Part shown: in pieces, positions 27,467 to 63,164 of the stretch
How the letters are laid out: the number at the start of each line of letters is the position of its first letter
Position numbering within the stretch: position 1 is the first letter of the stretch
DNA from: Takakia lepidozioides
Taxonomy: Eukaryota; Plantae; Bryophyta
Assembly (NCBI GenBank): GCA_030704615.1
Contig: CM060731.1
Location: forward strand, 75,578,001 to 75,642,000
Length of the DNA stretch: 64,000 nucleotides
Direction: 5' to 3'
Program-made: the position numbers and the translations under genes
The notes under the pieces: generated by a model
Database searches by the model: none
Told to the model about the DNA's origin: nothing
The model's input: the letters and a program-made list of their open reading frames with translations, nothing else

Positions 27467-28724
27467 CAGATTTTCTTCCTGAACATTCTACCTGTGGTAC
27501 CTCCGTCACAGGTGTGTGTATTATATGCACCGCAGGGTTTCCCCTAGACAACCGTTGCACCTCCGGAATCATTGTGTCCTTGACCATACCAGAATATTCA
27601 TAGAGAAGGTCCCCCTTCTCAATTTCTGCCACCACCTGTTCTGTAGTGGGAATATCTAACCCTTCTTTTTCCAAATCAATTATTTCTGGTGGCACTACAT
27701 GGACAACTTGTGGTAACTCTGTGACAAGCCGATCATATGGTTGTGATGGCTGTGATACTGAAGTAACTTCCTCTTCCCTCTCTGAAGGTTCTGCTCCCAA
27801 TAATAGCAGTTCTCTGTGCTGCTGTGCCCCTTCCTGCACAAGAGCTTGGGGAACATTATCATGCGGATTCCGTGAAGCCAGTGGATCCGCCACTACAGTC
27901 TTTCCCCGCCTCTGTCTCTTATTCTCGGGTTGCCCTGCTTGTCCACCCTCACTGTGTGAAGAGCCTTGCTCTTCCATTGCAGTGGTTTTTTGCTCAAACA
28001 CTCCCATCTCCTTTCTTTCTCGAGCATCAAGTATGCCAGAATCAAGAATTATTTGAGCAATGATTGGGCCAGACACTATGATAGGAGACTTTGCGGCAGT
28101 ACCCTGTAATCTTTTCATCTCCTCTACCAGTGCGTTGTACATTATGTCCGCCCATTCTACCTCTTCTCCTCTCAGGGCTTTGAGTATTTCCTCTGTGAAG
28201 GATCTGCTCAAATACTGTTGGTTCTGTTTCATGGCAAACAGAACGTTCAATACCTGGCCTACCTCCCTTAGCCCTGGGTACACGGCCTTGGTACAAGCAT
28301 AACCCTGAGTTTTAAAGAAACTCCCTTCTTGGAATAAGTCCCGTATTTGCAGTCTTGCCCTGTGCTCCTCCACATGCACCTGACCTGCTGGCAATCGAAA
28401 CAATTGCTGTAGGTATAGGGGAGTAATTACTAATTCAACTCCCTTCACCGTTGTTGCTCCTGTCCTAGGCTCAAAGTTCTGCAAGAATTGTAACATGTAC
28501 TGTCTATGGTGCAATGTCCAATCTTTGCTTTGCAATCCTTCCAATCGCAGCTCCTTCAGTAACTTTACCGCCTGTGGAGTAGCAATCATTTGTTTCTGCA
28601 GGATTGTGGTGCTCTTCACCCTGATGTCCTCCATTCCTCTCACTCTCTTCATTCTAGACCCACAGAAATGTTTTGGCTGTAACAATTGAAGAAATCCAGC
28701 TTGATGTTTGACTGCAAAGAACAA
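27450..28724 (-). CDS. Athila/'env-like' type extra ORF (424 aa), probably continuous with the 778-aa ORF in the ancestor
   Basis: QFLQNF...TVKGVELVITPLYLQQLFRLP and VEWADIMYNALVEE resemble the conserved blocks of plant LTR-element extra ORFs. It overlaps the next ORF by 17 nt. Confidence 0.65.
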   Translation of the reverse strand: MFFAVKHQAGFLQLLQPKHFCGSRMKRVRGMEDIRVKSTTILQKQMIATPQAVKLLKELRLEGLQSKDWTLHHRQYMLQFLQNFEPRTGATTVKGVELVITPLYLQQLFRLPAGQVHVEEHRARLQIRDLFQEGSFFKTQGYACTKAVYPGLREVGQVLNVLFAMKQNQQYLSRSFTEEILKALRGEEVEWADIMYNALVEEMKRLQGTAAKSPIIVSGPIIAQIILDSGILDARERKEMGVFEQKTTAMEEQGSSHSEGGQAGQPENKRQRRGKTVVADPLASRNPHDNVPQALVQEGAQQHRELLLLGAEPSEREEEVTSVSQPSQPYDRLVTELPQVVHVVPPEIIDLEKEGLDIPTTEQVVAEIEKGDLLYEYSGMVKDTMIPEVQRLSRGNPAVHIIHTPVTEVPQVECSGRKSGGAMA

Positions 28725-28979
28725 GATGCAGTAGCATTACATTCGACACATTTGGACAGATGACTGGAAATTGGGGAAGGATCAGGAGAGGAAAATAGGA
28801 GGACGACTTACTTCGTATACTACCTCTACCATTCCATCCATGTGAGCCGATACCATGTCCGGTCTGTTTTAGCCATGGATTTTTGAATGAGCTCGGGATC
28901 CAGGAGTTTGGCGAACATGTGCGGGTCTTTCCAGGCTGCAGCGGAAGAGAAAACCAGGCATAAATGGTAAGTTTGTTAT

Positions 28980-29752: not shown

Positions 29753-30792
29753 TGTCACGCGGCTTTTACTCACCCATCCCTTCGCTATCCGAGGCGGAAA
29801 CTCCAAGATAGAAGAGTTGGAAATCTCTAAGTACTCAGCCCGCTCAGAACAATCAGTCATGACCTACAGCTAGTGAATCATGGGGGTGTTTCCTATTTGT
29901 TTTCCTTTCCGCATTCATGTTAGCTAGTTACCTTACTGTTGGTAATTAAGTATCAGTTTGCTTCAGTAATCTATCGGATTCCATCATCTCATCCATTCAT
30001 TCCACAGCTTCACTCAGATCTCTCTACACAGTGTGAGTATGAAGTGTGTATCAGATTAATATCTATCAAGTATCAGGCTGAAGCCGAGGAGTCTCTAATC
30101 TGCTCTACATTACAATTCTACTGCTTGCATTCATTAAGCATTACAGATCATCCTCCTCCTACTCCGTGCTCTCCTTCTTTCTGGTCAGAGATACGCTCTC
30201 TGTCTCATTCCCCCCACTCCTTCCAGCAGTGATTCCCCAAGAAGTGATCATTTTCCAGTCCTCGCTCCTCGCTTTATCTTCCTACCCGTTGTTCTAACCG
30301 TTTCCCTCACTAACCGTCACCCGTGAACTAACATGTTCCATTCGCAGATGTTGTTCCCCACAGTCGTTCCATGTCCTGCTATCCGTTCCCTATGGTCGTG
30401 ACAGCTGTGTCAAGCTGTGACTGGCTATGCGACTGTGTTGGACCGTGTCAGTTGTGTCAAGCTGTGACTGGCTATGCGACTGTGTGGGACTGTGTCAGCT
30501 GTGTCGGCTGTGTCGGGCTATGACGAGCTGTGTCGGACTGTGACGGGCTGTGTTGGCTGTGACGGGCTGTGTCGACTGTGACGGGTGTGTTGGCTGTGAC
30601 GGGCTGTGTCGGCTGTGACGGCTGTGTCGGACTGTGACGAGCTGTGTTGGCTGTGACGGGCTGTGTAACCCCCCCCCCCCTAAAGTGCGCTGTTGTCATC
30701 CCTAAGGCTCCTGTTGGTCTCAGTCTTTGCAAAAATTAAGGGTACCCCACAGATCCCGTAAAAGTGTCTAAGTCCCAGACAGTCCTCTAACA
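29753..30792 (-). repeat. 3' LTR of element A (1040 bp)
   Basis: TG...CA termini, adjacent PPT at 30793-30809, homologous to the other two LTR copies. Confidence 0.92.
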
Positions 30793-33700
30793 TTACCCCT
30801 TCCCCTCTCAAAAAGCCGTGTCCTCACGGTTTACTGTTTGGGATTAGCAAACCTTTGTGAGTGAGCACCCTTCTGACGTTGAGAGTCTCGTGAAGGACTC
30901 TGTGTGCGAGCCCGAGGTCTGTCACTGGTTGACGGAGATGATTGAACACTACCTGGATATATAAGCCCTCTGGAGGCTGATATCGAGGTAATCTTTCAGG
31001 CATAGGAGACCCCCGTCGTTTCTTCTTTGCCATCTGAATTGCATAGTCCTCTCCCATGTCAAAAGAGTCCGCTGAAGAAACAGTTGTATCAGAATCCTCA
31101 TCGCCTCTCAGGTGTTTTTAATTGTCGAACTTTTTGTGGAATCCTCTGGGGCATACAATGTTGTCCCACCATGTCTGGAAGTTTAAACTGTAAAACTTGT
31201 TGTAAACGCTGAATGGCAAAATTGGTGAAGACCCTGAGCTCCTTGTCTGTCCAGGTGAGTGGGTACCAATGACTTGTGAATTGTGCAAGTATTTCCATGC
31301 CTCATGTCCCTTAAAGAAAATATCGTCAGGGCCGAATTTCTGTGTTGACAAATTGTTCCAGGCCGCATGAAACCATGAACGAATTTGAGAATCCTTTTGC
31401 ATCATAACTTTTGCCTCATATAGGTACATATGAGGTGGCACTGAAGGTAAGACCCAATGATCCCCACTGGAATAACTCAGAAAGCGCGATTGCATCTGTG
31501 CTGCTCAATGTGATAACGTACCAGAAAACAAGCAGCGTAGTATAACCCGCAGCCCATGACAATACTTGCTACCTCCTTGGTCTTGGTATAAATGAATCCA
31601 TGTACAACTTGGAAGGCAATTAATTCCTTCAACATGGTACTTGCCTCATGCCAGTATTGTGCAAAGTGATGATCCTCAATGGTCGATTGTTCGGAAGAAC
31701 TTTAGTCCTAGTTGCCACTGGCAGCCAAATGCGCATGATTTGATAGTAATGTGCCAATGACTGCGGAGGACTAAATTCTTTCCAAGCCAAATCCAACACA
31801 ATGGGAATTTGGTTGAAGGGCATAATCATAGCCCTACTGTACTCCCTTGCAGCTGGAGTTTTAGGTGGGTTAAAAGCAGCATTTCCCCATACCTCAGGCT
31901 GTGGTGGCTGTGGTGTGGCTGTAGTAACAACAGGGTCAGCTACTGGCACAGTGACTTGTTGTGGTGTTGGTGGCACTGGCTCTTGTACCATGGCATCTCC
32001 TGCACCTCTTGTGAAGAAGACTGAAAAGCCAAAGTTCTGGCTTGTAAATAAGAAGCCATTAGCTGTTCCTCAGGTATACAGACTCTCTTGTCGATATTTG
32101 AAGTGAGGTCCTCCACTTGAGTCTGCAGGCCGTCTACATCCTCCTGTAACTCCGCTATCCTACTATAGACATTGTCTATAGTAGTTGTGGCAATGTTCTG
32201 CACTTGCAGTCTGAGCTCATTCATCTCGCTTTGGGTGAGCTTTCGTGGTGCTTTGCCCTCCACTGGCCCTTGTGCTAACCAGACCTGCATAAGGTGGTTA
32301 TCCACCAAGTTGCTTGTGGTCCCCTCTGAGAGTGTGCTCCTCTCTGAGTTTGTACACATCTAATTGCTGTTGTAAAGCCTCCATGCGCTTCGCATGAGGT
32401 TCAACCAAACTCGCATAGGCAGCAAGCAGATTATTGGCTTCCTTCCAAGCCTTGTTAGTGACCGAGATTTCATTTCTATTGGCCATGACCGTTTGTTGCA
32501 ACTCCAGGATGTGCCTCTCTTGGTCAGCTTCAACCTGCCTGTATTGCTTGAAGTATTCTCATTGCGACAGATTGTATTCTTCATATCGACAATGAGTTTC
32601 GTTTGCTCGACATTCTCTGCCTCTGCCTCGTACATCTTTCCGCTTGACTGTTTATTTCTATTGTACTTTGTTCAAGCATAGTTGTGAGTGTAGCACATTG
32701 TATGGCCATCCTGTCATGCACTGTCTGCAACTCCGTATGTAGTGCATTCACTTCTTGCAACTTGCTTTCATGCTTCACCTGCATTTGGTATAGCTGTTGC
32801 TTATGTGCTTCGTGCAACTGGTCTTGCGCGAGGCCTGCCTCAATCAATTGTTCCTTGGCCAATTGCAAAGCCGCTTTGTACTCTCTAAGTCTTGCTGCAT
32901 CTTGAGAGTGACCTCTTCATCACCTTGTTTGCACACTCCAAGTGCCTCAAACTCCTTCCTGCCAAGTTCCTCCCTCAAAGCTGCATTGGGTAGTGGGAAC
33001 ATGATTTTGACATAAGTCCGCAACAAATCCAGTGTCCTGCTTTGTGAACCCATAAAGCATAAGCCTGTTGAGGGTCATCTGGTGACTTGCTGTTGTTCTC
33101 CCCTGATCCCTAATAGTGTTATGCCTTACGAACCACATCAGGCCTTGCCCCCACCCTTGCCCCCCCACCAGATTTTCTTCTGAACCACTTCATCGTCCAC
33201 TTGGTGCTGCAGTGTCTTGACATTCTAAATGTGGTACCCGGTACCTCCGTCACAGGGTGTGTGTATATATGCACCGCAGGGTTTTCCCTGGACAACCGTT
33301 GCACCCTCCGGAATCACTTTGTCCTTGACCATACCAGAAATATTTCATAGAGAAGGTCCCTCTTCTCATTTCTGCCACCACCTGTTCTGTAGTGGGAATA
33401 TCTAATCTTCTTTTTCTAAATCAATTATTCGGTTGAACTGCATCGACAACTTGTGGTAACCTTGTGACAAGCCCGATCATCTGGCTGTGATGGCTGTGAT
33501 ACTGAAGTAACTTCCTCTTCCTCTCTGAAGGTCCTGCTTTCAGTAATAGCAGTTCTCTGTGCTGCTGTGCTTCTTCCTGCACAAAAACTTGGGAAACATT
33601 ATCATGCGGATTCCGTGAAGCCAGTGGATCCGCCACTACAGTCTTTCCTCCCCGCCTCTGTCTCTTATTCTCAGGTTGCCCTGCCAGTCCACCCTCACAC

Positions 33701-43974: not shown

Positions 43975-46040
43975 CACCCACACTCTATCTCTATTCCTTC
44001 AGCTATCCATGCCTCTGCACAAATCAAGCATTCATCCTTGCCTTGCTGCTAGCAGCTGACAATGACGGCCTACATTTGTTCTAGGAAACACCCAACTCAG
44101 CGTAGCACACTAGTTCCTATGCTGAATTGCGTCTGCTACTCTCTGAAATGTAGCAGGCATTCACCTTTCTGCCCCGGTTGACCCATCAGTGACTGGGCTC
44201 AGATGAGTATTCATTCCACAGCTTCTCCTCATCTCTGTTACCTATTTTTTGACACTTTCCTGTTGTCACATTGGCAGTATCATGTCAAAGTCACTCCAAA
44301 CTAGATTCACTCAACCAGCTAACTTGCAGAATTGAACATGTAAATTTAGGGCCGATTCTGATAAGAGGGAAAAACAGGGTGAAATGTGTTGAAGAAGATG
44401 TCTTCATTAGCAGTGCCTGATTTTATCACTTGTGCCGCTGCTCCCAGTTGACCATCTACCCATGCAGGTTTCTTGTAGCTATTGATCCACAGGGAATCAA
44501 AGGTAATCTTGTGCTTGAAATCTGGCCTTCTTGGATGAATCTGGACCCACACGAAATCCCTGCTCCTTCAGCTATCCATGCCTCTGCACAAATCATGCAT
44601 ACATCCTCGTCTTACTGCTAGCAGCTGACAATGACAGCCTAGAATTGTCAAAGCAAACACTAGCAGGGAAAACAGGGTGAAATATGTTGAAGAAGGTACC
44701 TTCATCCTTTTCTCCATCATTTGCTTTCAGGTGTCCAAAGCCCCATCCCGCGCTCCTGCTCTGCACACCCTTCAAGCATCGCATTCCACGACACCACATC
44801 TAGTTCAGCCATAGTGTTGAACACTCCCTTGGCATCCTCAATGCTCCCACATTTAGCATACATGGCCACCAAGCCATGTTCAGGATGACATCTGGTACAA
44901 TTGCAGATTTGATGATGTCACCAGGGATCTCTTTGCCCTTTTCCAGGGCTGCAGACGCACTGCAAACGCACACAAACGTTATGTCGGCGGCCTTCACCCC
45001 TTCCCCCATCATTTTCTCAAAAGTTGGAGCCTCCATCCCGCACCCCAGCTGTGCATACCCAGCAAGCATCGCACTCCACGACACCACATCTCGTTCAGCC
45101 AGTGTTGAACACTCCCTTTGCATCCTCAATGCACCCACAATTGGCGTACATGTCCACCAGGGCAGGGGCAGTGTTCAAAAGGACATGTGGTAATTTGACA
45201 GGCATTCACCTCCTGACTTGGCTATTCCCAACCCATCCTGCCATTGGCAAGAGATTCCACAGAAACTGATAGTTGTCTGTTTGACTGTATAACTATGTAT
45301 CTCTTGCTTTCTAACAGCTTGTACTGTGACACGCGTAATGCTCTTGTTGTGTTGAATCATTTCACGCCTTCAGGTTTCAGAACAAACATTACCGTCTTTC
45401 TTTATCAGACATGTGCACCAAGATAGAATCTCACCAAAAGATTGTTGGTGTTCAACAGTACCATACATGAAGATAACTAGCACCAAAAGGGCATATGAAG
45501 CTTATTCTACTCTCCACTAGTATTAACTTGCACCAGGACTTTCAATGGCTGTCTTCCAGTCCACCCACGGCCCGCTGTAAATGGCTTGCAACCTACAGAT
45601 TTTCAAGAGAGTTGATTACCATGAAAATTTCAAAACTGGCTTTACAAACCTAATAATTCAAGCATAATCAGCATTCAAGCTAAGGAAGCTTTACAAGCAT
45701 CATGTTGCGAGTAAAGCCTTGGCAACGTCACCAGGAAATCCCCGGCTGAATGGATGACACTGAAATAATGGAGCTTGAAATCCGGCCCTCTTGGACGAAT
45801 TTGGGCCCACACTCTATCCCTGCTCCTTCAGCTATCTATGCCTCTGCACAAAATCCTTCAGCTATCTATGCATACATCCTTGCCTTCCTGCTAACAGCTG
45901 ACAATGACAGCCTAGAATTGTTCCAGCAAACACCCCCAACCCTACTTATCAACGAGCAATGAGCTAACTTACAAAATTCAATATGCATCTCAGGGCGTCT
46001 GATGAGAGGGCAAAACATGCTGAAATAGGTCGAAGAAGAA
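43975..46040 (-). pseudogene. Scrambled PDF-motif/PPR pseudogene fragments
   Basis: IHPRRPDFKHKITFDSLWINSYKKPAWVDGQL (44440-44545), LWNEYSSEPSH*WVNRGRK, PPR remnants DVVSWSAMLAGYAQ...LEKGKEI (44780-45190), and repeated intron segments. Confidence 0.8.
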
Positions 46041-47280: not shown

Positions 47281-48747
47281 AGCAGTCTGCTGCAGATAAA
47301 CATAGTCACCAGGGTTAAATCTCCAAACCCCAGGACGATAGCCCCCACCACGTATGGTAGCATACCTCAACGTATCACGATGTTGTGCAATGGCAAGGTT
47401 ATGGAAAGCCATGGGCATGACTTTCTTAAACAACTCTGCACGCTGATCACATGCACATGCCCACATGTCCGGATCGTCAAGGTTGAGAACTGTAGCAGCT
47501 TCTCTACGAATGGATGCAGGCAAATCCGGCTCTCGGCCAAAGAGAAGAAAGTATGGTGAGAAGGAGGCAAGTGATGCTTGCTTGCTGAACCTGTAGCCCC
47601 TGGCTAACCAAGGTAACCGAAGGTCCCAATCTCCTAGGTGTCCCTTCTGCAAGCCATACTTGCGCAAACCCCTCTTTACTGTCTGGACAACCCTCTCTGC
47701 CAAGCCATCGGCCTCAGGATGATCCCGAGAAGTGGTGCGGTGGTCTACCAAGGCCTTGACACACAACGCCTGAAACTCCCCCAAGAACTCTCTCCCTTGG
47801 TCCGTGAGTACCTCAGCTGGAGCACCGAATCGGCCAAGTACACAATCCAAGAATGCATACGCAACTCCCTCACTAGCCTTATCAGGCAATGGAACCAACT
47901 CGATCCACTTGGAGAAGTGCTCCACCATCACCAACACGTACTTGTTGCGGCGCATGGTCAGTGACAACGGCCCTGCGAAGTCAAGACTCCACCTGTAGCC
48001 CAATCCCATGATTGGAAGAGGGTGCAATTGTGGAGTAGGGGCGTTGAATGAAGCACGCACCCTGTCACACACCATGCACCTAGCCACAAATTGTTGCACC
48101 TTTGTGTGCATACCACGCCACCAATACTGCCCCTGTAGTAGACTATGAGTGCGTCGCATCCCAAAATGCCCCAACTCCTCATGGGCATGCCGCACTAACC
48201 ATGCCCGCTGTGTTGGGTGAGGCACAATCCTCACTCGACCATCCTCCCACACTCGGAGCAGGTGTGTTCCCTCCCACTTGAACCTCTTGGCTCGTTGTAG
48301 GATCCGATCCCTCTCCTTGGCAGTCATAGTGGCTGCTGTGTCTCCATTGCAGAGGTAGTCCAACACAGCTGAATCCTCATGTATATCTTTGGCGCCACCT
48401 TGCTCATTGCTGGCCTCAGGGTCCTCAGACACTCGGTCTACAGTCATCCCTGTTGTAGGTCCAACCTGGCCTTCTGCTGCCAAGATATACAGAAATGCAG
48501 ATGCATGCCATCCGGGCACCATCTCCTCGTCCGTCTCCCCATGCCACCAAGCTCCAGTATCATCCTGTTGGCTCGTGCATGGATTGCGACTCAACCCATC
48601 TGCATCCCGATTGACCAAACCCGGTCGATGCACAACCTGAAAGTCATACTCTTGAAGGATGAGTGCCCACCGTGCAAGCTTCCCCGTAAGCTTGTCTGAC
48701 TCCATCAACCACTTGAGTGGTTGGTGATCCGTGACAAGGGTGAAGAG
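47281..48747 (-). pseudogene. RNase H end and integrase of the methyltransferase-bearing Gypsy
   Basis: TDHQPLKW, HEELGHFG...CMVC, WSLDFAGP, LTDQGREF and HPEADGLAER. Truncated at YLQQTA. Confidence 0.92.
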
Positions 48748-49544
48748 GGGGCTGCTATTTCATGAGTGGCATGAGCATGAGCGGCATGAGCATGAGCGGA
48801 CAAAAAAAAAGCATGAGCGGGCCATTGTGTGTCCACGGAAATAGGGTTAGGAGGCACGGAAATAGGGTCATGTGGACTCGTCATAGCAATGAAATGCAAC
48901 ATTTTATTGCAAATTTTGTGGCAAGCCACGTCTATACAAGTGTGTCCTAACTGACATAGCAAGAATGGGAACTACTCTCCTACACCTTCCGAGGAACTTG
49001 GCCCTCCTTCTTCCTCATCCCCCTCATCCCCCCCATCCTCCGAGCTCTATGATGCATCGGTTGCACTATGCCTCTCAAAAATTCCGTCCTCTCATTGGGG
49101 GACTGTCCACCTCACCTCCTGGGAATCTTCTGCCTCTTCCTCAGCAGAATCCAAGACAAATCTACGAGCCCGACGGGCTCTAATATCTGCTGCCTCCTCC
49201 CTCATCTTCATTTTCTTGAGGCTTGCCTCGTCTAAAATCTGCTGTACACGACTAGGTTCGGAACACCTCCTAATGGACACCGAAGCAAGCCGGGTAGCAT
49301 AAGTAGGAAGGATGGAGTCCCTTTCTGGACTAGGCATGAAATCCCCCTTGGCAAAAAAAGGCACGTTCCTCCTGCCCATGAACTCCGGTGTAGACGTCCC
49401 TCCTGCAGTACTTGGCATCCTACAGTAAGAACAAATCCACTTCAAGAATGTCAATACCAGCAGAAGCAGAAAGGGTTTTCAATGAAATAAGAGAGCAAAG
49501 GGAGGCGCCTCACAAAATCTGGAGGCAACTTACAATGCGACCAC

Positions 49545-50270
49545 TCACTCGTAAACCGGGGGCTCCTCGACCTCAATCCCAACTTGTTCCTCCCCCTGCT
49601 CCTTCTCGGATTTTTCCTCATCCTCCAAGGGTGCCTCTTCCTCTTTGGGCAGATGTTCAGCCGCTGCAAGTTCCGAGTTGTGGAGGGCAGTATCTGGCTC
49701 GAAGGCGAACACATGCCTGTCGGACAACGTCCCTGCCCACATTGAAGCACCTGAGGAACAACGCAGGCGGTTAATAGCTTGGGGCATGCAATTGCAATCG
49801 GGCCAGGGGACAAACTGAGCACGTGAAGGCTTACCCGTGCCACATCTGAGGTCAAGAATCCGCCCTTGGACATCCGAGCACGTCTCCATGAGGGTTTGGA
49901 TGAAAGCAGGGCTTCGGATCCGGCTGTACCGCCACGGTTTGCCTATCTTTGTGTCCTTCGGCATACTGGAGTGGGGCACATAGTTGTAGAGGACATCGTA
50001 GGTAACAGGGTCTACAGCGGCATCAACAAGACGACCGTCGTTGAGGAATTTGAACGTAAACCCTTTCTTCACAAAGCAATATGCCTCAAACACCAATGTC
50101 TGCACATCCAACAAAAGAGGGATCAACTCCGGGATCTAGTTTAGATACACCACAATATGAGGTGAATGCAATAGATTGATAACTTACACTTTGGCCCTCT
50201 GTTCGCAACCCCTGTGTATTGATGCAGAACCATTTTCTGAGGAGGACCGGGGTGACACTTTTCGGTGTCC
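49545..50270 (-). pseudogene. Spliced amino-(N4C/N6A) DNA methyltransferase-like gene fragment (SAM-binding C-terminal half)
   Basis: GT-AG introns at 50187-50100 and 49834-49751. The spliced product reads GKPWRYSRIRSPAFIQTLMETCSDVQGRILDLRCGTGASMWAGTLSDRHVFAFEPD. Confidence 0.65.
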
Positions 50271-50279
50271 ATCGCGCAT

Positions 50280-51380
50280 TCCATTCGGAGCGCGTCCGGA
50301 TGGAAATCCGGCGCCGAATTTCCATCCTGCAGGTAATTCGGAGCGCGGCCGGATGGAAAAACGGCGCCCAATTTTCATCCTGCAGGTAATTCGGAGCGCG
50401 GCCGGATGGAAATCCGGCGCCGAATTTCCATCCGCCAGGTAAGTCGAAGCGCGGAATTACCATCCTGCAGGTAATTCTGAGCGAGGCCCCTTGTTTTTTT
50501 GGTCTTAAAAGACAAAACCTTATGTTTTAGACACGGTTTTCAGGGAATTCTCGACTGGTTGAGAGAAATTCCTTGCTTCTTTTCCATCCCTCGTAGTTCC
50601 TAAATGGAAATTCGTTGCCGAAATTCCATCTGGCCGCGATTGCGATTGAAATTCGGCGCCGGTTTTCCATCCCCTCCGCCCAAGTCGACTTTATTCCGGT
50701 GCCCCCTGTTGGATATTCGGTGCCGAATTTCCGTCCGGGGGTTGTATTGTGACGGCCAGGTGCCGGCCTCTCCCCCCGAGCCGACTACAGCCGAACGGCC
50801 CCGGATGTAAATTCGGCGCCGTTTTTCCATCCGGGGAGGTTTTTATGTCGGCCACTTTTCGGCCTGACCCCCCGACACGACTTCTTTTGGGGGGGCCCGG
50901 AGCGAAATTCGGCGCCGAATTTCCATCCGGGGGATGTTCTCTGTCGGACAGGTGCCGGCCTCTCCGCCCGAGGCGACTTCATCCGGGCGGCCCCTGTTGG
51001 ATATTCGGTGCCGAATTCCCGTCTGGGGGTTGTAATGTGACGGCCATGTGCCGGCCTCTCCCCTCGAGCCGGCTGCATCCGAACGGCCCCGGATGTAAAT
51101 TCGGCGCCGTTTTTCCATCCGGGGAGGTTTCTATGTCGGCTACTTTTCGGCCTGACCCCCCAACACGACTTCCTTTGGGGGGGCCTGGATGGAAGTTCTG
51201 CGCTGAATTTCCATCCGGGGGATGTTCTCTGTCAGACAGGTGCCGGCCTCTCCACCCTAGTCGACTTCATCCGGGCGGCCCCTGTTGGATATTCGGTGCC
51301 GAATTTCCATCCGGGGGTTGTAATGTGACGGCCCGGTGCCGGCTTCTCCCCTTCAGCCGACATCATCCGGGCGGCCCCCC
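50280..51380. repeat. Array of palindromic GGATGGAAATTCGGCGCCGAATTTCCATCC-like units
   Basis: Units at ~53-bp spacing (50298, 50351, 50404), then ~96-bp spacing with a ~288-bp higher-order period (50711, 50999, 51287). Confidence 0.85.
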
Positions 51381-51613
51381 ACTTTCTGACTGCATATCGT
51401 TGGCAGTTATTGCGCAAAGACCAGGGGCGGCATTCCGGAGACAATGTTCATTAACACTCTGACTGTGGATTTTTGAGATAGTTGGCTCCCTGGATTTGGA
51501 TCAGGCTTCGTCGCTCGGACAAATCGGCACCGCATTCCTTCCCATCGGTGCATCCCCCTTCTACCAGGGAGCTTGCCCGCACGCCATCCTGGCAGTCTTG
51601 TGTGCACATCTCC

Positions 51614-53186
51614 CATGGCGGAAAACCCGAGCGCTACAGTGTACTGCCCTCCTCACGAGCATAGAGCTTCATTTCCGTGCAGAGGGGACATCTGCCGTGT
51701 GATGGAGAAATATCTGTGCGTTCGATACCACCTGAAACCGGGGTCGGTTTTTTTGGAGGAGGAAAGGAAGGACTCAAACGGCGTTGTTGTCGAGAGTATT
51801 GTTGTGCTCCACGATGATTTCGGCGATGGCAGGGAATGGCGAGTTCCACAATCGGACAGCGTCATATACAGGGCGGTTGGGGACTTCATTTGCCCACCAA
51901 ATGCACCTTTTATCCTGGCGCCTTCCACGAAACAATCCGCGAATCAGAGAGTGGGTACCTCAAAGAGAGAAGTCCGCAACGAAGTAAATCCAGAGCCCAA
52001 CCCATCAATGAAGACGAGTGAGAACCGGGTTGTTCACAACCTGTCCGACTCTTACGAGGTCATGGAAGTTCCGAGATCGTCCTGGAGATCAGGCAAGTCC
52101 TCAATGGATGTCAGTGGATGAGGGAGTCATATTCCCAGCACCAGCACCGCAGTTCGATCCATTCTTGAAATTCTGCGAGGGCTTCACATGGATGGACACC
52201 GCTCGGAGCTGGCCGGGCTGGACTACAGCAAGTTCGCAATTAAATCGGTTACAAGCCTTCCCGCAGACGTCGATGGTAATATCTTCTTTGAGTTCCCTCC
52301 TCGGACGGACTACTCGAGGGCGTCCGGAATGTTGATAGATATGGATAGAAAACATGACGGTCATCCTTGGTGCGTCACCAAAACCACCAGCATGAAGATG
52401 CTCGATGGTGTGCGGGTGTGCTACGTTGTTTGTGCGGGCGCGTTGCGGTGTTTCTCCCCAACTTGCTTCCATTTTAAATCCAGAGGTCACAGGAACGAGA
52501 CGGATTGGACAGGCACAGCTCATCAACCATTTCGAGCTCAGGAGAAGGTTTTGAACTCCACATTTAAGTGTGCGCATTGCAAAGAACCACCACACTGCAT
52601 GTCTGTTTGTAATGCCAAGCAGTTCTATGTGTTGCACTGTTTCCCTGACCTCACCCGAACTTGCATACACGTTGGTTCCCAGTGTCACAAATTGGCGAGG
52701 GGGAACTCGCGGGAGGCTGCCCACGAGGCAAAGCAGCTCGTTCAGGAGGAGGTTAAGTTGAGACCGGGTGCCAAACCCAAACAGATACAGCTCCAAGCCG
52801 CCCATAAGATGGCATTGGCCAGAATTATGTCGGAAGACGGCTCTAATAGAGTTCCTCTCGATGACAAGGAAATGGAGGCATTGCTGGAGTCGGTGTCCCA
52901 CGTCTGTTCACCGAATGTCCGAAACCACATTGTCTCATGCAAACAGAAAATTGGGCGTGGCTCGGATATGCACTCCATTCTGAAGGTGAAGCGACGATGT
53001 GGATATGACTACATTCATGGAAGTAGGTTTCCAGGACAAGGGACTGAGGCAGATCGTTGTTTCGTATTCAAAATGTCCACGTGTGGGCCTGGCAGCGGTG
53101 TCGAACTGGTTGACAGGATGACGAGTGGGGACTTGTCAAACAGTTGGGTCATGTTCGACCATATCAAGCGAATTACAAATCACTAG
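51614..53186 (+). pseudogene. MULE transposase N-terminal part (WRKY-GCM1-like Zn domain), truncated after the first catalytic Asp region
   Basis: HDGHPW...CAGALRCFSPTC...CAHC...C...C...HVGSQCH, then FVFKMS...WVMFDHIKR. It lies inside the TIRs. Confidence 0.65.
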
Positions 53187-53652
53187 TGGGTGACATGGCC
53201 CAGAACTGCCCAACATCTGTGCAATCCCCGGCACCATGTACCAAAATTCGGCGCCACATTTCCAAATTTTGGGCTTACACACCTGTCCTAAGGGGACCTA
53301 TAGCCGCGGAATTCGGCACCATTTTTCGCCAGAGAGACCTATTACCGCGAAATACGTCGCGGTTCTTTCCGGTTACGGACCCCATTACCGCGAAATTCGG
53401 CGCCATTTTTGCACATGTCGCTGGGAATTGGCATGAGCGGAAGACGAAATATCATGAGCACAACTCTCAAAACTACAATTTTCCCTTCAAGGTGCCGAAT
53501 AATATATTAGTTTTTTCTGACACATTTGCATTAAATTAATGTTTTTAATGTTTTTTATTTTTGAAATTTGTACTTCTGCTCATGAAAACCGATTGTCTTG
53601 CTACTCCGCTCATGCCGCTCATGCTCATGAAATAGCTAACCTCGATGAAGAG

Positions 53653-54854
53653 ATTGTCGTATAGATAGCACCTGAAGTGTGCCACGGCCCCACTGCAGCT
53701 AAGCATTCTCCCTCATATGAGCTATACTTAGACTCTGCAGCGTTGTTCGAGAGGCTAGCATAAGCCACTACGAACTCTCTTCCCTCATCATCCACCTGTG
53801 TGAGCACCGCTCCAAGCCCCAGCATGCTCCAATCTGTATGCAGCTGAAAAGGACGCCCTCTGATAGGTCGTCTCAAGATGGGCGCCGAGGTCAACCTTGC
53901 CTTGAGCTCTTGAAAAGCTTGTTCTTGCTCATCTTCCCATTGCCACTCCTGGTCCACCTTGGTCAGTTTGGTTAGAGCCTTTGCAATGGCACTAAATCCC
54001 TTAACAAACCGTCTATAATAGTTTGCTAACCCCATGAAAGCTCGAACTCGGCTCACATCCATGGGGCGTGGAATCTGTGCAATGGACTCTACCTTAGTCT
54101 GCTGTACCCCCAATCTTCCAGGATATATCATGTGACCCAGATACTCAATTTGGTTGTGGAAAAACTTGCACTTCCCCGGATGTAACTTCAATCCGTGCGC
54201 CCTCAAGCGCTCAAATATCACCTGAAGGTGTCTCTCATGCTCCTCCACCGTAGCACTAAAGATGATGATGTCATCTATGTAGCACCGAGCAAACTCCACC
54301 CCTGCTAGAATCCTGTCCATGACTCTCTGAAACTCTACCGGAGCGTTCTTAAGCCCAAATGGTAAGAACCGCCACTGGTATAGGCAATCCTTCCCGTGCT
54401 CATTGATCCCCCAGAATGCCGTCTTCTGCTTATCCGCCTCCTTGATCGGCAACTGGTGATATCCGGATCGTAAATCCAAAGTGCTAAAGACGTTGGCATT
54501 ACCAATGGCATCAAAGATCTCCTCTGGTGTCGGCATGGCATACCTATCGGACTTGGTCTGACGATTTACAGGCCGGTAATCACCGCACATACGTCTCTCC
54601 GTCCAATTGCCATAGACATCATTCTTGGCTGGCATCACTGTGGCTGAAGCATACTCTCCCCCAGATAGCTCCACCAAACCAGCCTCCCAAAGGTCCTGAG
54701 TTCTCATCTGAATCAAGGACCTCTCCATGTCACTATATCTATAGGGTCTCCAAAAGATTGGCGTGTCAGTGGCCAATTCAATGCGAATCTCTTGACTCTT
54801 CAGTGCTCCTAAGTCCTTCAAACTGAAGGCAAAGCAGTTCCTGTAAGCCCTCAA
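53653..54854 (-). pseudogene. Reverse transcriptase and RNase H of the methyltransferase-bearing Gypsy
   Basis: MCGDYRPVN, LDLRSGYHQ, LPFGLKNAP, YIDDI, LHTDWS and YSSYEGE. Confidence 0.95.
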
Positions 54855-55309
54855 GAACCGCCGTATACATCGTCTTTCTCCTCCGGTGACTATAGGTCCA
54901 ACATCAGGCTCCCAGTTGTCCTCCGTGACTGCAACCTTGAGTCCAGCAGGCTTAGAGGTAGAAGACGCATCCCGTGGTTGCTATGCTGCAACCTCTTGAG
55001 TAGTGATCACTGCCTCCTCTGTCAGTGACAATGTCTCATCCTGCCCCATCATCCCATCCTTGAGGACCTCCTCAACCCGAGAAAAATCCCCAACCTCATC
55101 CATCACGGCCGCCTTGGCTGCCAACTCCTTTTGAACCTCGAGCACCTCCCACGTGTGCCATGGATGCGGCCTGCACCTCATGGTCCTCACCTGTTCGCCC
55201 CCACTCACTGCCTGTACCGTCTCGGTAGGCAGGGAGACCATCAAGGGAAGTGTACTCCGTACTCTGCGCTGCTCAGCCATAGCCAAGCTGATAATCCAAG
55301 TCAAGCAAT

Positions 55310-56225
55310 TGAGATCCATTGCTTTCCCCAACACCTGACGACGTGATGCCTCAGAAAGAGATGGCACCACCATGATACCAGTGGTGAAACCCATTGCCCG
55401 CTCGCACTCGTCAGCATTGGGCTCCACTAACTGCTGCAACTGGCTATCCCACAAGAGGCCAGGTCCACCATCCCGGAAAGCATGAGATCCTGGAAAGCTG
55501 AGCAGTGTAGGCAATGCTGCTCGTTGGTGACCCACCTTATTGACCACTGCCAAAGGTGATCGGTCATCGTGTCTCACACGCTGAGACTGCCTCCCTATGT
55601 CCAAAATGCTATCCACCATCAGGTTTGGTGGCCGCTGCACTCCATCAAATGCACGCTTGAGCAATGCAGGTGGTATCAAGTTGGTCCACCATAGTCATGG
55701 GCGATGAGTCCGTGACCCCACTGCAGCTGCATCCAGCAACACTGCTGACCCAAGCCAAGACCGCACTTGATGTACACTGGCCATCACCTTGGCCCAAGAA
55801 TCACCCATCAATGGCACATTCTCCAAGATATATGCCGGAGAGTCTGTCTGCTGAAGCTGTAAATAGCGCATGACCCTCAACATCTCCCAAAATAGGCGTG
55901 ATCTTGAGTCTTGTAACCCATTGCCATACCCAGCTGATGAAAGCCCTTGGCAGGGCCAACCTGCCACTACTAAGTGAATAGGGCCAACCCGCTCCAAATC
56001 ATGTGCCCCAAGCAAGGAGATGTGTGCTGGCAAGGCTTGTTGGTATCCACGAACTGCAGACACTCGCAACAAATCAGGGTATTGCTGCACCAACTGAGCA
56101 ACATGGCGCAGTCGTGCAGTCTCATCCCTCTCCACATATAGGTAACGTCAAACTCGTACATCTGCCTGCAGCACTGCAGCCAATCCAGTGTTAATCCCGC
56201 CAAACAAGTCCAAAAGGCATATGCC
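55310..56225 (-). pseudogene. DNMT3-like DNA (cytosine-5)-methyltransferase domain within the polyprotein
   Basis: Motif I LLDLFGGINTGL, II YVERD, IV VAGWPCQGLS, VI ILENV, VIII HRP*LWWTN, IX-X ERAMGF...RRQVLGKAMD. Two in-frame TGA stops. Confidence 0.9.
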
Positions 56226-56603
56226 TTCATCCGGGCACTGCCACACAAGAGGTGTGGTGTCCAATGGCGACAACTGAGGTGGTCCTGGTGCAATCACCGC
56301 ACTCTCCTCCTCTCCTGACGGTACAAAGGCCTCTACCTAGGCTTGTTGCACCCGTCTATCAGCAGTTTGCTGCAAATCCTTGCTCGTACCCCACAATGGA
56401 GTGTGAGCAACCATGACAGACAACTCCACCGTACCATGCATGTCATCCTGCTCTGCTGGAGGTGGCACATCCGCTGCATGGGCATTGCCCTCCAACAACT
56501 CTTCAGGCCAATTAACTGCAGCTGTGAAGGCTGCTAGTGTTGGCATCTTGCCCCGTTGGGCAGTAGCAACACCCCCAATGAACGTCACAAGGAGCTATAC
56601 ACA

Positions 56604-59154
56604 TCAACCATCCCTTGACTGCCATCCAGGCCTGTAGGATACTGACTCCTCCCAAAAATCCAGGGTGAAGCCCATGAGATATAACACTGCCCCACCAACG
56701 AGGACATTGTAAGAGACCGCGTCTGTCACAATGGCCTTGGCTCGCATCACTGAGCCATCTATAGGATGATCCGGCTGTATTCTAATGGCCAATTCACGCC
56801 GTGTCATGCCCCGAGCCTGCTCTGATCCTCCCAGAGATGTTTGTATCTGGAAGGGACAAGGCTCCATATCCGCCTCTATGAGGCCCAAACCTGCAATAGC
56901 GGCTTTGCCCAACATCAGTGGCTGAGCTCCCGAGTCCAACAAGACCCGCAGTGGCCGGTACCTCTTGCCTGCCGGTCCATTCAAAGAGAAAATGTCATCC
57001 TGGTTGTCTAACAAAACAACTCCAGGTGTCACCATGGCGCGCTCAAAGGCTGGCCTAGCTGGCAGTTCCGTCAACTTGACAGCTGCAGCTTGCCATGGCG
57101 CAGCCGTGGCAGTCTTCACCCTCAAATCCGAAGATCCCTCTGCCACTACACCTTCCACTAACTCCACAGAAGATGAAGTAACCTCCCCACTCTCACAGAG
57201 TGTTGCTGCTAGTCTGAACACTGCAGCTGGTCTTACCCCCGGCGTCGCAATCATGGTTGCCGAGAACAGTGGGGCCTGACACACAGAGGTGGCCGCCCCC
57301 AACAACACACTGGCTGCACTAGCCTTGGCAGCAGGTGTCAATGCTGCACGTGTAGCTCTTCCCAATGGCACAATAACCTCCGCCTCGGTATCCGTGGGGC
57401 AAGAATTAGGTGCCATGGATGTCGTCGACACTATCTCCGCCAAGATGAATGATTGAGGCAACTTAGCATGACGGCTTGCCTCCCCACGTTGTGAATCCAA
57501 CTCCACATCTGCACCTCGTGGCTCAAGAACTCGTGCTGCTCCTCGGGTGACGGCTGCAGCAGACTCCACCTGCACTAGTGGTAGTGCTGCCCCACACATA
57601 AATCCCATGCCTCCCATGTCTCCTTCGTTAGGATGATGTTGCTGAGGAAGAACAGGAGGTGGACCCTCAGGTCTTGGAGCTGGTACCACCTGAGCTGTGG
57701 CCATGGCAGCGAGCCTTTGCTCTAGCTACTGAAGCCGGTTGGCCATACCTTGGTCAACGCCCTGACCTCCACGTCCTTGGCCATACTGTGCTTGCCCTCG
57801 TCTTGCACCTCGTGCCTGAGCACCTCGTCCTCTCTGAGGTGCTCCACCTCGCCCTCGGCCACCATTGTTCCCTTGGAACTGGCCTCGCCGCAACTCAGGG
57901 TGCAAGTCATAACAGTGGGCATCTCCATGCCCATACTTGCCACATTGCCCACACTGCAACTGTGCAGGCTGTGCTTGTGCCGGCCCTTTGCCACTTTCTG
58001 GGCAATCTTTTTTGACATGGGGTCCTCTACATGTCCAACATACCACCCCTGGTTGCTGTTGGCCTACAAAAGAAGCTACTGGCCTCTGCACTTGAGGTCC
58101 CTTGTAAGCTCCATGGAATTTGGGTTGGGCAACCTTGCCCCCCTAACCACGCTGTTGGGCAGTCCCTTGTACCTCTTGGATGGCAGCTGCTCCTCGTGCA
58201 GGCATGTCTTTGCCAAATCCAATGGTAACAACTCGCTCCTCCACCATGTTGAGCTCAATCCGCTCAGCCAGCAGAAACACATCCGCTAATGTGGGTTGGG
58301 CCGCTTGTAACAAGGTTGCATCCCACACCCTTCTCCTGAGCTCTTTGTCCAAAATTCCATACCAGAACTGGACTGCCTGAGCTTCAGTAACCCCTTGGGT
58401 CACACTTATCAAGCGCCTCATACAAGTGTAGGCCTCTCGCAAGCTCTCACTGGATTTGCGCTGGAAGTCTTGCAAACTTCACAGCTTCTCTGTCTATACA
58501 CCTTGGTAGTTCCTCCGCAACTCCTGGAAGAACTCCACCACCGGGTTGAATCTAGGCACATGAGTTGTAGTCGTGGCAGGAGGAGTAGTAGCACCTTTTG
58601 AACTGGTACCACCTGCAGAAGTACCGGCACTACTTGTTCCACTACTAGTGCTTGTAGTTGGAGATGTTTGTGTAACTGCTGGTGTCACCGCTGCCCTTGT
58701 GCCGAGACATAGTTAGGTGACCAATACTCTCGGCACTCCTCAATCTCCACCGCATGTCCCCGCCTAAATTCATGGTATCATCCATGGGCGGCCCCTCAAG
58801 GTGCTGGAATAGCCCCTTCCATGCCATAAAGGGCGTAAACAGTTGTGGATTGCGCATTTGCTGCAAATCACACCAACTGTCAAACTCTTGTATAAAGTCA
58901 TCAAGCTTGATGGTGCCCACAGCTCCAGAGTACCTACGTGGCCCTTTGGTAACTCCATACATCTCCTCCATCGTGTCCCACAACAATGGCACGAAAATGA
59001 CTTGCACCCTCGGCGAGAATCCTCCTGACTCCAAGTCTGAACCTTCCTCAGAAGACACTGAAGGTGAAAGTGGCCTAAACCGCACACCTCGTCTTGTGTA
59101 CCCACTAGTATCGCTGGTGCTCGTATTGGCACTCCCTTCAGCAGCTGGTGGCAC
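56604..59154 (-). pseudogene. gag and aspartic protease of the methyltransferase-bearing Gypsy
   Basis: YSGAVGTIKLDDFIQEFDSW, two CCHC knuckles and VLLDSGAQP...VLVGG. Confidence 0.85.
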
Positions 59155-60120
59155 CTCCGTGATGAAAACTCACAACCACACCTGTTGTAAACCTGTCTCT
59201 AATCCCCCTTTCCACAAGGTAACCGGGTAGAGAACCTGTTGCAGCTTATGGCTTAGACTACTAGGTTCGTAACATAAACCTGCACCTGCATCCACTGCAA
59301 GCACTCATATGGTTTGCTAGTCATCAATCCAGCCTCACCATAAGAGAAACAATGATGGTCTGACTGGTCATCACCCCAGCCTCACCACCGACAGCATGCT
59401 CTATGATTGGCTGGTGATCAAATCTGGACCGACCTCCTATGAAAACAAGCGCCCACACAAAACTGACATGACGCACAGTCAAGCATGCAGGTGTGGGGGG
59501 GATCCAAATACAAGAAAATCAAGACAGTAACTCCCCCACACAAAAAAAAAACACTCCACAATGTTGCTCCTGCAAGGACACCCCAGCCCAAACCCGGACT
59601 GACTCTTGCCTCCACCTACGGAAAGGTTTTGGCCTACATAGAGGGTGGAAGACTACGGGGAAGAGAGAGTAAAGCAATTCCTAATCCCAGAATGCTCTCA
59701 TCCCACTAGTCTCCCCCTATCTCTAAACGCTCTTGCTCATGACCAATAGACATAACTACCTTCCAGGGTCTCTCAAATAACTCTCCAAGAGCCCTCAAGA
59801 TGTCTCTCAAACAATCTCACTAAGGCCCCCAAAGCCTGCCAAATCTTGGCCCTCAAGGACCCCAAAAAGTCCTTCAGACAAGTTGCCAAAGACTCCTTAA
59901 GCTCGCCAGATAAAAGCCTCCAAGGACCTCAAAATAGTCCTCCGAATAGCCCTCCAAAGCTCCAAATGTTTGCCAAATATTGGTCTTCAAGGACCCCCAA
60001 TAGTCCTCCAAACAGTCTTCCAAACACCCCTTCAAGAGCTCTTCAAGTGTCTTACAAAACCTCCTCAAAGGACCCCCCAAAGATCCTCCAAAGGCAATAC
60101 TCCTCCAGATACACCCTAGA

Positions 60121-61537: not shown

Positions 61538-62523
61538 AAGTAATGCTTCTCAAACCCTAACATCAATGTTCTCCACGCCACAAGGATTTTCCTTTGCAAA
61601 ACCTGCAACACCTTGCAATACAAGAGCTCTTTACCAAGCTCTCTCCAACACACAAGTGCTAAACTAACCCTTACACTCCGCACTCACAAGCATAAGGAGA
61701 TCTTCTTGTACTGATAATGGAAGTGAACACACAATGGAAACACTCCACTCATGAATCCACTCGATCACATAAACTAAGTGCACCTTTGTTAAATGAATCC
61801 ACCCTACAAAGCCCTCACCACACTCCATCTCAACCCCTAGAGCTATGGAGGTGGGAGAGGCTCATGGAGGCTCAACTACAAGAAGATGAGCCTCCTCAAC
61901 ACTCACAAGGGGAAAACCTATCTCCATGTCTCAAGTGAGGCTCGACACCTCACTTGGCATGTGAGACCAAATGAAGTCCCAACACAGAAAATATAAATAT
62001 AAATATCTAAAATGTCATAGTTAACTAGAAGTAGGTAATTCTAGATATGTATATTTATATTTTGTGTGTTGGGAATTCATTTGGTCTCACATGCCAAGTG
62101 AGGTGTCGAGCCTCACTTGAGACATGGAGATAGGTTTTCCCCTTGTGAGTGTTGAGGAGGCTCATCTTCTTGTAGTTGAGCCTCCATGAGCCTCTCCTAC
62201 CTCCATAGCTCTAGGTATTGAGATGGAGTGTGGTGAGGGCTTTGTAGGGTGGATTCATTTAGCAAAGGTGCCCTTGGCTTGACTTAGTTTATATGATTGA
62301 GTGGATTCATGAGTGGAGTGTTTCCATTGTATGTTCACTTCCATTATCACTACAAGAAGATCTCATTATACTTGTGAGTGCGGAGTGTAAGGGTTAGTTT
62401 AGCACTTGTGTGTTGGAGAGAGTTTGGTAAAGAGCTCTTGTGTTGCAAGGTGTTGCAGGTTTTGCAAAGGAAAATCCTTGTGGCGTGGAGAACATGGATG
62501 TTAGGGTTTGAGAAGCATTACTT
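61538..62523. repeat. Long inverted repeat (foldback) with ~475-bp arms and a ~30-bp spacer
   Basis: 61538-62010 is the reverse complement of 62042-62523, with few substitutions and one ~10-bp indel. Confidence 0.92.
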
Positions 62524-62524
62524 G

Positions 62525-63164
62525 AGTCAGGATCTCGCGTGTTGGTCTTCTAGTAGCTTGGCCTTGCATTTCTTGCTAGCCTTCCATGGTTGTATCCACT
62601 CCCACTATCCAATGCAATGCGGACATAACCAATCCCCATCAGGAACCATCTCAAGAGGTGGAGTCAAGCATCCCATATGCCAACCTCTAGAGCATTGATC
62701 ACACACCAGCATGGTGGCTGCCCCTCTAGCAGACCCACACAACATGCACCTCAAACTTGCAGGTACCACTGCCAGGTTTGGGTCAACCCTTCCATCAACA
62801 TTTGGAAGGTGACATGGCGCGCAATTATGCACATGGTCCTTCCAAATCATGCCATCCCGACCCTCCAAGATCAGGACTCCTGAGGGCAACACCTCTCGAA
62901 CCCTCAAAATAGTACGTCATGCAGTCACATCCAAGGTCGTAGGAGCAGTCTGCTGCAGATAAACATAGTCACCAGGGTTAAATCTCCGAACCCCAGGACG
63001 TTAGCCCCCACCACGTATGGTAGCATACCTCAACGTATCACGATGTTGTGCAATGGCAAGGTTCTCGAAAGCCATGGGCATGACTTTCTTGAACAACTTT
63101 GCACGCTGATCACATGCATGTGCCCATATGTCCGAATCGTCAAGGTTGAGAACTGTAGCAGCTT
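62525..63164 (-). pseudogene. Second copy of the methyltransferase-Gypsy integrase C-terminus, with a PHD finger
   Basis: 62944-63164 is nearly identical to 47281-47501. It continues to CMLC...MLVCDQCSRGWHMGCLTPPLEMVPDGDWLCPHC (C4HC3). Confidence 0.9.

Follow-up and report, generated by a model that had tools for sequence, protein, structure and literature searches.

The window analysed here is a stretch of 64,000 nucleotides from the moss Takakia lepidozioides (assembly GCA_030704615.1, contig CM060731.1, positions 75,578,001 to 75,642,000). On its minus strand lies a Gypsy retrotransposon with a DNMT3-like cytosine methyltransferase domain between the protease and the reverse transcriptase (RT), as the original prediction, made from the letters alone, had proposed. 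The pieces of gag, protease, methyltransferase, RT and RNase H all fall in one frame from 58688 to 53625, also as predicted, with 10 internal stops. The gag region (57700-58971) carries decay stops and two zinc-knuckle-like CxxC motifs, at 58040 and 57953. Its start methionine, aligned to relatives at 58971 or possibly slightly upstream, sits in a different frame, and comparison with other copies places the break near 58776. The aspartic protease (56589-57053) has LLDSG at 56942-56928; the same region of the intact relative L019 matches Asp_protease_2 with E=4.5e-4, below the curated cut-off. Then follow the methyltransferase (55260-56228), assigned from Pfam, PDB, structure and alignment, an in-frame stop with its context, TAG CAA CCA (54975-54983), the RT (54099-54818, YIDD at 54281) and the first part of RNase H (53644-53939), which has a frame break near 53690. 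With the stops written as X, Pfam matches DNA_methylase (E=1.2e-8, above the cut-off), RVT_1 (5e-32) and RT_RNaseH_2 (7e-24). Beyond a nested 4.9-kb insertion (48748-53643) lie the end of RNase H and the integrase (47281-48738; Integrase_H2C2 4e-15, rve 3e-13), which the prediction had overlooked; the zinc-binding domain of the integrase spans 48213-48052 and the core 47997-47716. The Gypsy order of protease, RT, RNase H and DDE integrase is present in the window across the insertion and also in L019. Another element cuts the copy at 47281, so that the PHD finger and the 3' repeats are missing.

Nine of the 10 internal stops are products of decay and one, at 54981-54983, is a family-wide feature. 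A single decay stop was comparable with other copies in the 40 contig rows listed of 927; at that stop, 56337-56339, 99% of the contig depth has another reading. Where the window copy differs from the others it mostly has A or T for their G or C, as expected from deamination. The copy is dead, as had been supposed; besides its nine decay stops it has broken frames, an insertion and a truncation. The supposition of a single polyprotein broken only by point stops fails, because the stop at 54981-54983 is conserved in the family and has a readthrough context; the methyltransferase therefore belongs to the Gag-side open reading frame (ORF), ORF1.

The methyltransferase domain contains, in the usual numbering, motifs I, II, IV, VI, VIII, IX and X in unpermuted order. 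They are found where they had been predicted, with LDLFGG at 56213, YVERD at 56138, GWPCQG at 55961, ENV at 55823, HRP at 55706, ERAMGF at 55403 and GKAMD at 55328. The window copy of the domain has two stops, one of them inside motif VIII, and a 3-codon gap near 56110. The DNA_methylase match had been proposed as a first check. The PDB sequences that match best are those of DNMT3A (4e-10) and DNMT3B. A 16-sequence profile run against PDB gives DNMT3A at 2.5e-21 against 2e-9 for HhaI and 2e-8 for DRM, with scores of 79 bits for DNMT3A, 40 for HhaI, 37 for DRM and 30 for DNMT2. Foldseek places DNMT3 first (1e-17) for an AlphaFold model of the domain with a predicted local distance difference test score of 89. 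In a wide VIA structure search DNMT3B aligns over 271 residues (Z 26.3, root-mean-square deviation 2.8), and the two DNMT3 scores, Z 26.3 and 25.4, compare with 22.7 for the next family and 20 for DNMT2. The predicted DNMT3 signature is thus confirmed by Pfam, PDB profile, model, Foldseek and VIA, all of which rank DNMT3 first. By sequence and model the domain is DNMT3-like, closer to DNMT3 than to DNMT1, DNMT2, DNMT5, CMT, DRM or the bacterial enzymes, a likeness that rests on profile and structure rankings, the trees described below being composed of element sequences. Scans of phages and prokaryotes found only weak relatives, except for two misfiled retrotransposons, and a viral scan using P0004 gave no match. 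The two misfiled sequences, L139 and L140, are eukaryotic retrotransposon contigs inside bacterial metagenome-assembled genomes and are likely misbinned.

Across the aligned relatives the residues for S-adenosylmethionine (SAM) binding, the catalytic cysteine, ENV and motif VIII are nearly invariant; the cysteine is kept in 56 of 59 rows and the glutamate of ENV in all 59. The ratio of nonsynonymous to synonymous substitution rates (dN/dS), a test suggested with the prediction, is 0.12-0.21 for the domain between subfamilies, dS being near saturation in the comparisons with the window, 0.136 for L019/L021, a pair free of saturation, and 0.36-0.58 among near-copies that have decayed. As judged from these ratios the domain is under purifying selection.

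Related proteins terminate at the position of the window's stop. Of 11 Marchantia cluster members examined, six end 97 residues past motif X, one ends at the motif and four are without it. Among 32 close loci the stop site is covered in 28, with TAG in 21, TAA in six and TAC in one, and the next codon is CAR in every one of the 28. The search for intact copies recommended earlier yielded two sequences with a single stop: L019, from the gag start methionine to the end of the PHD finger (TAG CAG TTA), and L139, from the methyltransferase to the end of the PHD finger (TAG CAA TCA). These two spellings and that of the window, CAACCA after TAG, all fit UAG-CAR-YYA, which PMC3542737 describes as the motif of type I readthrough in tobacco mosaic virus. 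The second codon after the stop encodes Pro, Leu or Ser, yet YYA is kept. The motif is followed in the window, L019, L021 and L139 by an open frame without an AUG of its own, none being present between the stop and the conserved start of RT. No alternative letter reaches 3% over 54975-54986 in any of the four sequencing runs (534 contigs in run X1). The CAR-YYA context occurs at one of the 64 TAG triplets of the element, the background being 0.3%. A conserved RNA structure 3' of the stop was not found (z of +0.65 for the window and -1.9, -2.1, -0.6 and -0.9 for others), and Rfam has no match in L019, L139 or L025. As read from the sequences, ORF1 consists of gag, protease and methyltransferase and ends at the conserved stop, and the RT, RNase H, integrase and PHD finger are likely made by readthrough of it.

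The function proposed for this arrangement is as follows. ORF1 would be translated at the full rate into Gag, protease and methyltransferase, and occasional readthrough would append RT, RNase H, integrase and PHD finger. Lying in ORF1 before a probably leaky stop, the methyltransferase is predicted to be made in Gag-like amounts, abundant as a capsid protein and not scarce as RT. As is general in retroelements, the methyltransferase would be packaged and the protease would free the domains within the particle. The double-stranded cDNA, as the DNA at hand there, would be methylated before integration; the chances that cDNA is the substrate appear about even. Its methylation may hide the cDNA from host sensing or deamination, or may seed maintenance methylation at the new site, both of which are put forward in PMC5890265. 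Taken as a whole, the account of a decayed Gypsy copy with a gag-protease-DNMT3-like ORF1, low-rate readthrough, and a methyltransferase that is packaged and methylates the cDNA is favoured with moderate confidence.

It is possible, though rather unlikely, that the abundant enzyme acts not on the cDNA but on host chromatin, at resident copies, at target sites or by interference with the host DNMT3, and thereby tunes silencing. Gag-level amounts exceed the needs of the two cDNA molecules of a particle, the integrase bears a PHD chromatin reader, and host-level effects are discussed in PMC5890265, but the domain has no targeting module, and in 58 of 58 clade rows (architecture by BLAST) it is joined to Gag and protease.

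Several observations weigh against the favoured account. Among the metagenome loci one insertion is represented more than once (L024/L025), so that the independent evidence for the stop amounts to about four subfamilies and not to 28 events, and the window may itself stem from run X1. In the peat-moss-type subfamily the stop is followed by CAA CCC, which deviates from CAR-YYA at position +6, and six bases downstream of the stop 25 of 26 loci have an in-frame ATG. A sister clade and the Closterium elements have the same order without the stop, at least 11 loci having an open linker, and the stop is therefore not needed for keeping the domain. Four gene models (P0005, P0006, P0010 and P0026) splice across it. 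The element ends are known from relatives, the terminal repeats of the window copy being not preserved or not delineated. In yeast, no de novo methylation was seen with the Klebsormidium domain, a result that its authors call inconclusive (PMC5890265).

Some of these observations would be accounted for if Pol were produced by splicing, with the TAG or a nearby AG as acceptor, or by re-initiation. The intron between protease and RT of Ogre elements is a precedent for splicing. Three of the four gene models lead to the same acceptor region, but each uses its own donor, as gene predictors do in order to skip a stop. A T-rich tract precedes the TAG, and the ATG that follows it in the peat-moss type would suit re-initiation; against these stand an ORF1 open right up to the TAG in subfamilies with different tail lengths, the retention of YYA under three different amino acids, and the lack of an AUG in the window, L019, L021 and L139. 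One contig guessed to be RNA, which may be DNA, covers the stop unspliced. Splicing or re-initiation is thus improbable, and readthrough is preferred.

Slightly more improbable is a role of the domain other than DNA methylation, in which it would bind nucleic acid or modify RNA as a component of the particle. The negative yeast assay and a position at the end of ORF1, like that of structural proteins, would agree with such a role, but the near invariance of the SAM-binding, catalytic and motif VIII residues and of ENV, and a fold that resembles DNMT3 (Z 26) more than DNMT2 (Z 20), argue for a DNA methyltransferase.

The element belongs to a multicopy family of land plants. Named Marchantia polymorpha proteins make up 15 of the 43 protein matches (58-72% identity), and one match is from Sphagnum fallax. 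Further relatives are found in Calypogeia fissa (71%) and Sphagnum troendelagicum, the identities across Marchantia, Calypogeia and Sphagnum being about 60-73%. A profile search yielded 559 clusters at E<=1e-30, and in one DNA run 49,149 contigs aligned on 7 kb of the element; the family is highly repetitive in the reads of this organism. Single contigs from two other runs join the methyltransferase to the RT. The predicted land-plant host is borne out by an intact PLS-class PPR-E-DYW gene on the same contig (window 15788-18466) whose named relatives all come from land plants; a tree of this PPR-DYW gene gives it no supported placement in any plant class. The one-off capture of a host fragment, contamination with algal DNA or a chimeric assembly, foreseen in the original prediction as ways in which it could fail and suggested by a window that is a nest of transposons and by related elements in algae, can be dismissed, being refuted by the same architecture in named liverworts and mosses and by independent contigs spanning methyltransferase and RT, with the PPR-DYW gene and the agreement of the two trees also against it.

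The function of retrotransposon-borne DNMTs has been open since 2018, partly because their hosts were hard to work with, and it becomes testable in Marchantia polymorpha, a genetic model in which many copies are annotated. The Marchantia ORF1 copies are filed as hypothetical host genes, Mp4g09160 and Mp5g06330 being examples of annotated genes whose methyltransferase domain is naturally open, and copies of the element inflate the DNMT counts in bryophyte annotations.

The RT and methyltransferase trees, both unrooted and with 17 near-duplicate identifiers listed for removal before the second was built, contain the same two groups, each split having 99% local support (FastTree). In the first, which includes Closterium, liverworts, mosses and the window, the domain precedes the RT; in the second, whose named members are chlorophytes, it follows RNase H. 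The sequences make a single ancient capture with relocation of the methyltransferase likely.

The second architecture, RT-RNase H-methyltransferase-integrase-PHD, dominates the wider family. The domain follows RT and RNase H in 83 of 190 proteins; examples are P0027, P0028, P0057, P0044 and P0185, and the loci L039, L045, L049, L058, L061 and L140, with Scenedesmus, Hariotina and Haematococcus as named members. A C-terminal domain like that of P0028, of Dam-like appearance (Pfam MethyltransfD12 only at E=0.16), is also present in 32 of the 190 proteins, which by their sequence may represent a third kind of dual-methyltransferase element, of DNMT3 type. A second bryophyte-associated clade, L030-L080 (e.g. 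L038, L040, L053), has one continuous ORF and shares the domain order, split repeats and self-priming signature of the window's family. The protein P0229 (1770 aa) has the methyltransferase N-terminally, then a weak RT and an RVT_3-type RNase H, and no integrase; it is possibly a non-LTR element (LTR, long terminal repeat) that took up the same domain.

Full copies among the relatives begin with a repeat A (TGTCA...) and end with a polypurine tract and B-A-B (...GACA), and exact 4-bp target duplications flank five of the seven copies examined. Such split A...B-A-B repeats accompany Gypsy domains in L014, L025, L031, L038 and L040. Directly behind the first A, six of 12 loci, from three subfamilies, have 13-17 nt that are complementary to a segment within A, and the complement differs in sequence between L019 and L139; a complement of at least 12 nt arose in none of 2000 shuffles. 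It is weak or absent in the other six loci (L001, L003, L015, L018, L031 and L040). A TATA-like box lies 20-30 nt ahead of the complementary stretch inside A in L038, L019 and L139. The arrangement suggests self-priming by a primer-site complement inside repeat A, a signature described for Tf1/Sushi and Tcn1 in PMC6317226. The 5' repeat and the primer site were not found in the window's leader, where a 29-nt motif (59399-59427, minus strand) is 86% shared with the distant relative L139. Should B-A be the true LTR, the genomic form would be a two-LTR circle opened at CA-NN-TG between B and A. The A...B-A-B ends, together with the integrase-type duplications, suggest that a circle is the form that integrates; in retroviruses such integration is considered a dead end. 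Five copies (L004, L010, L015, L018 and L022) end after a single B repeat, with a target duplication in the two that were checked; recombination between the B repeats likely removed the second A.

These features may be joined into one scheme, which as a whole is tentative and rather doubtful. An unnamed Gypsy lineage would have captured a DNMT3-type enzyme before the chlorophyte/streptophyte split; the domain, first lodged between RNase H and integrase, would later have moved to the side of Gag, and bryophytes would have added the leaky stop. Particles would be loaded with methyltransferase, the element would prime itself and methylate its cDNA in the particle, and the two-LTR circle, cut at CA-NN-TG, would arrive pre-marked for maintenance methylation by the host.

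The closest known element is KnitGypsy-Dnmt3 of Klebsormidium nitens (de Mendoza et al. 2018, PMC5890265), likened here by its description, as no named K. nitens protein appeared among the matches or in 30 look-ups. Both it and the family described here have an intronless, unpermuted DNMT3-like domain in a Gypsy polyprotein, and both KnitGypsy-Dnmt3 and the relatives have 'DIRS-like' A...B-A-B repeats and a domain under purifying selection. In KnitGypsy-Dnmt3 the DNMT shares an ORF with the RT, whereas in the window's subclade a readthrough-type stop lies between them; the shared ORF is found in the sister clade and in Closterium. The hosts here are land plants, and the species table in PMC5890265 is without Marchantia, liverworts or Sphagnum. 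Self-priming, 4-bp duplications and the PHD finger, present in this family, go unmentioned for KnitGypsy-Dnmt3 in the available text of that paper. The EpiLTRs (bioRxiv 10.64898/2026.05.21.726589) are likewise LTR retrotransposons with a cytosine methyltransferase and a chromatin reader, but their DNMTs are sister to DNMT4, accompanied by Dam and a chromodomain, and occur in Cymbomonas and Euglena; the available part of that preprint mentions 'streptophytes (Gypsy-DNMT3)' only, and no land plant, bryophyte, Marchantia or moss. No description of land-plant Gypsy-DNMT3 elements or of their stop was found in the literature, although subscription journals, Repbase or the supplement of PMC5890265 could hold one. 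The kind of element is thus already known from KnitGypsy-Dnmt3, and the land-plant members with a conserved readthrough-type stop appear to be new.

An in-frame stop between structural ORF and polymerase is shared with tobacco mosaic virus, whose type I hexamer (PMC3542737) fits the window, L019, L021 and L139, and with Candida Tca2 (PMC2194720) and Verticillium VdLTRE5 (PMC3441728), as these sources describe them. The latter two are Copia elements and, unlike the present family, have no CARYYA; here, moreover, the stop follows protease and methyltransferase and not gag directly, as in gag-pol stops. Tf1/Sushi and the plant Tcn1 chromoviruses have a primer site complementary to their own repeat and not to a tRNA (PMC6317226), as is seen here, but the present family differs from them in its split repeats, its methyltransferase and a PHD finger in place of the chromodomain. 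The C-terminus of L019 is a PHD finger (E=7e-10), and a Pfam-type domain search of L019 gave no match to the chromodomain that defines chromoviruses such as Tcn1 and Chlamyvir.

A fragment of a second family copy, with the integrase C-terminus and PHD finger, lies at 62560-63164 on the minus strand and begins directly after telomere-type repeats. A head-to-tail dimer of this fragment and the element was considered and dropped, as other insertions lie between them. The nested insertion in RNase H ends in short terminal inverted repeats and is flanked by a target duplication of 9 bp (53644-53652 and 48739-48747, one mismatch), by which it is likely a Mutator-like DNA transposon. In all four runs contigs diverge from the window at 53646 and continue directly with the RNase H sequence from beyond the insertion, which other copies therefore lack. 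It contains an array of 96-bp units (50650-51440) and a Cys/His-rich ORF of 354 codons (52122-53186) with no Pfam match. Degraded pieces of related PPR sequence are found at 44150-45930, near the 3' end of the element. Copies of a long ORF pair, with no Pfam match, occur in both orientations at 19308-21155, 25130-28736 and 30673-32876, flanked by 10-bp tandem repeats; they are likely accessory ORFs of another mobile element. A near-perfect 1-kb foldback, with arms 93% complementary, lies at 61538-62523.

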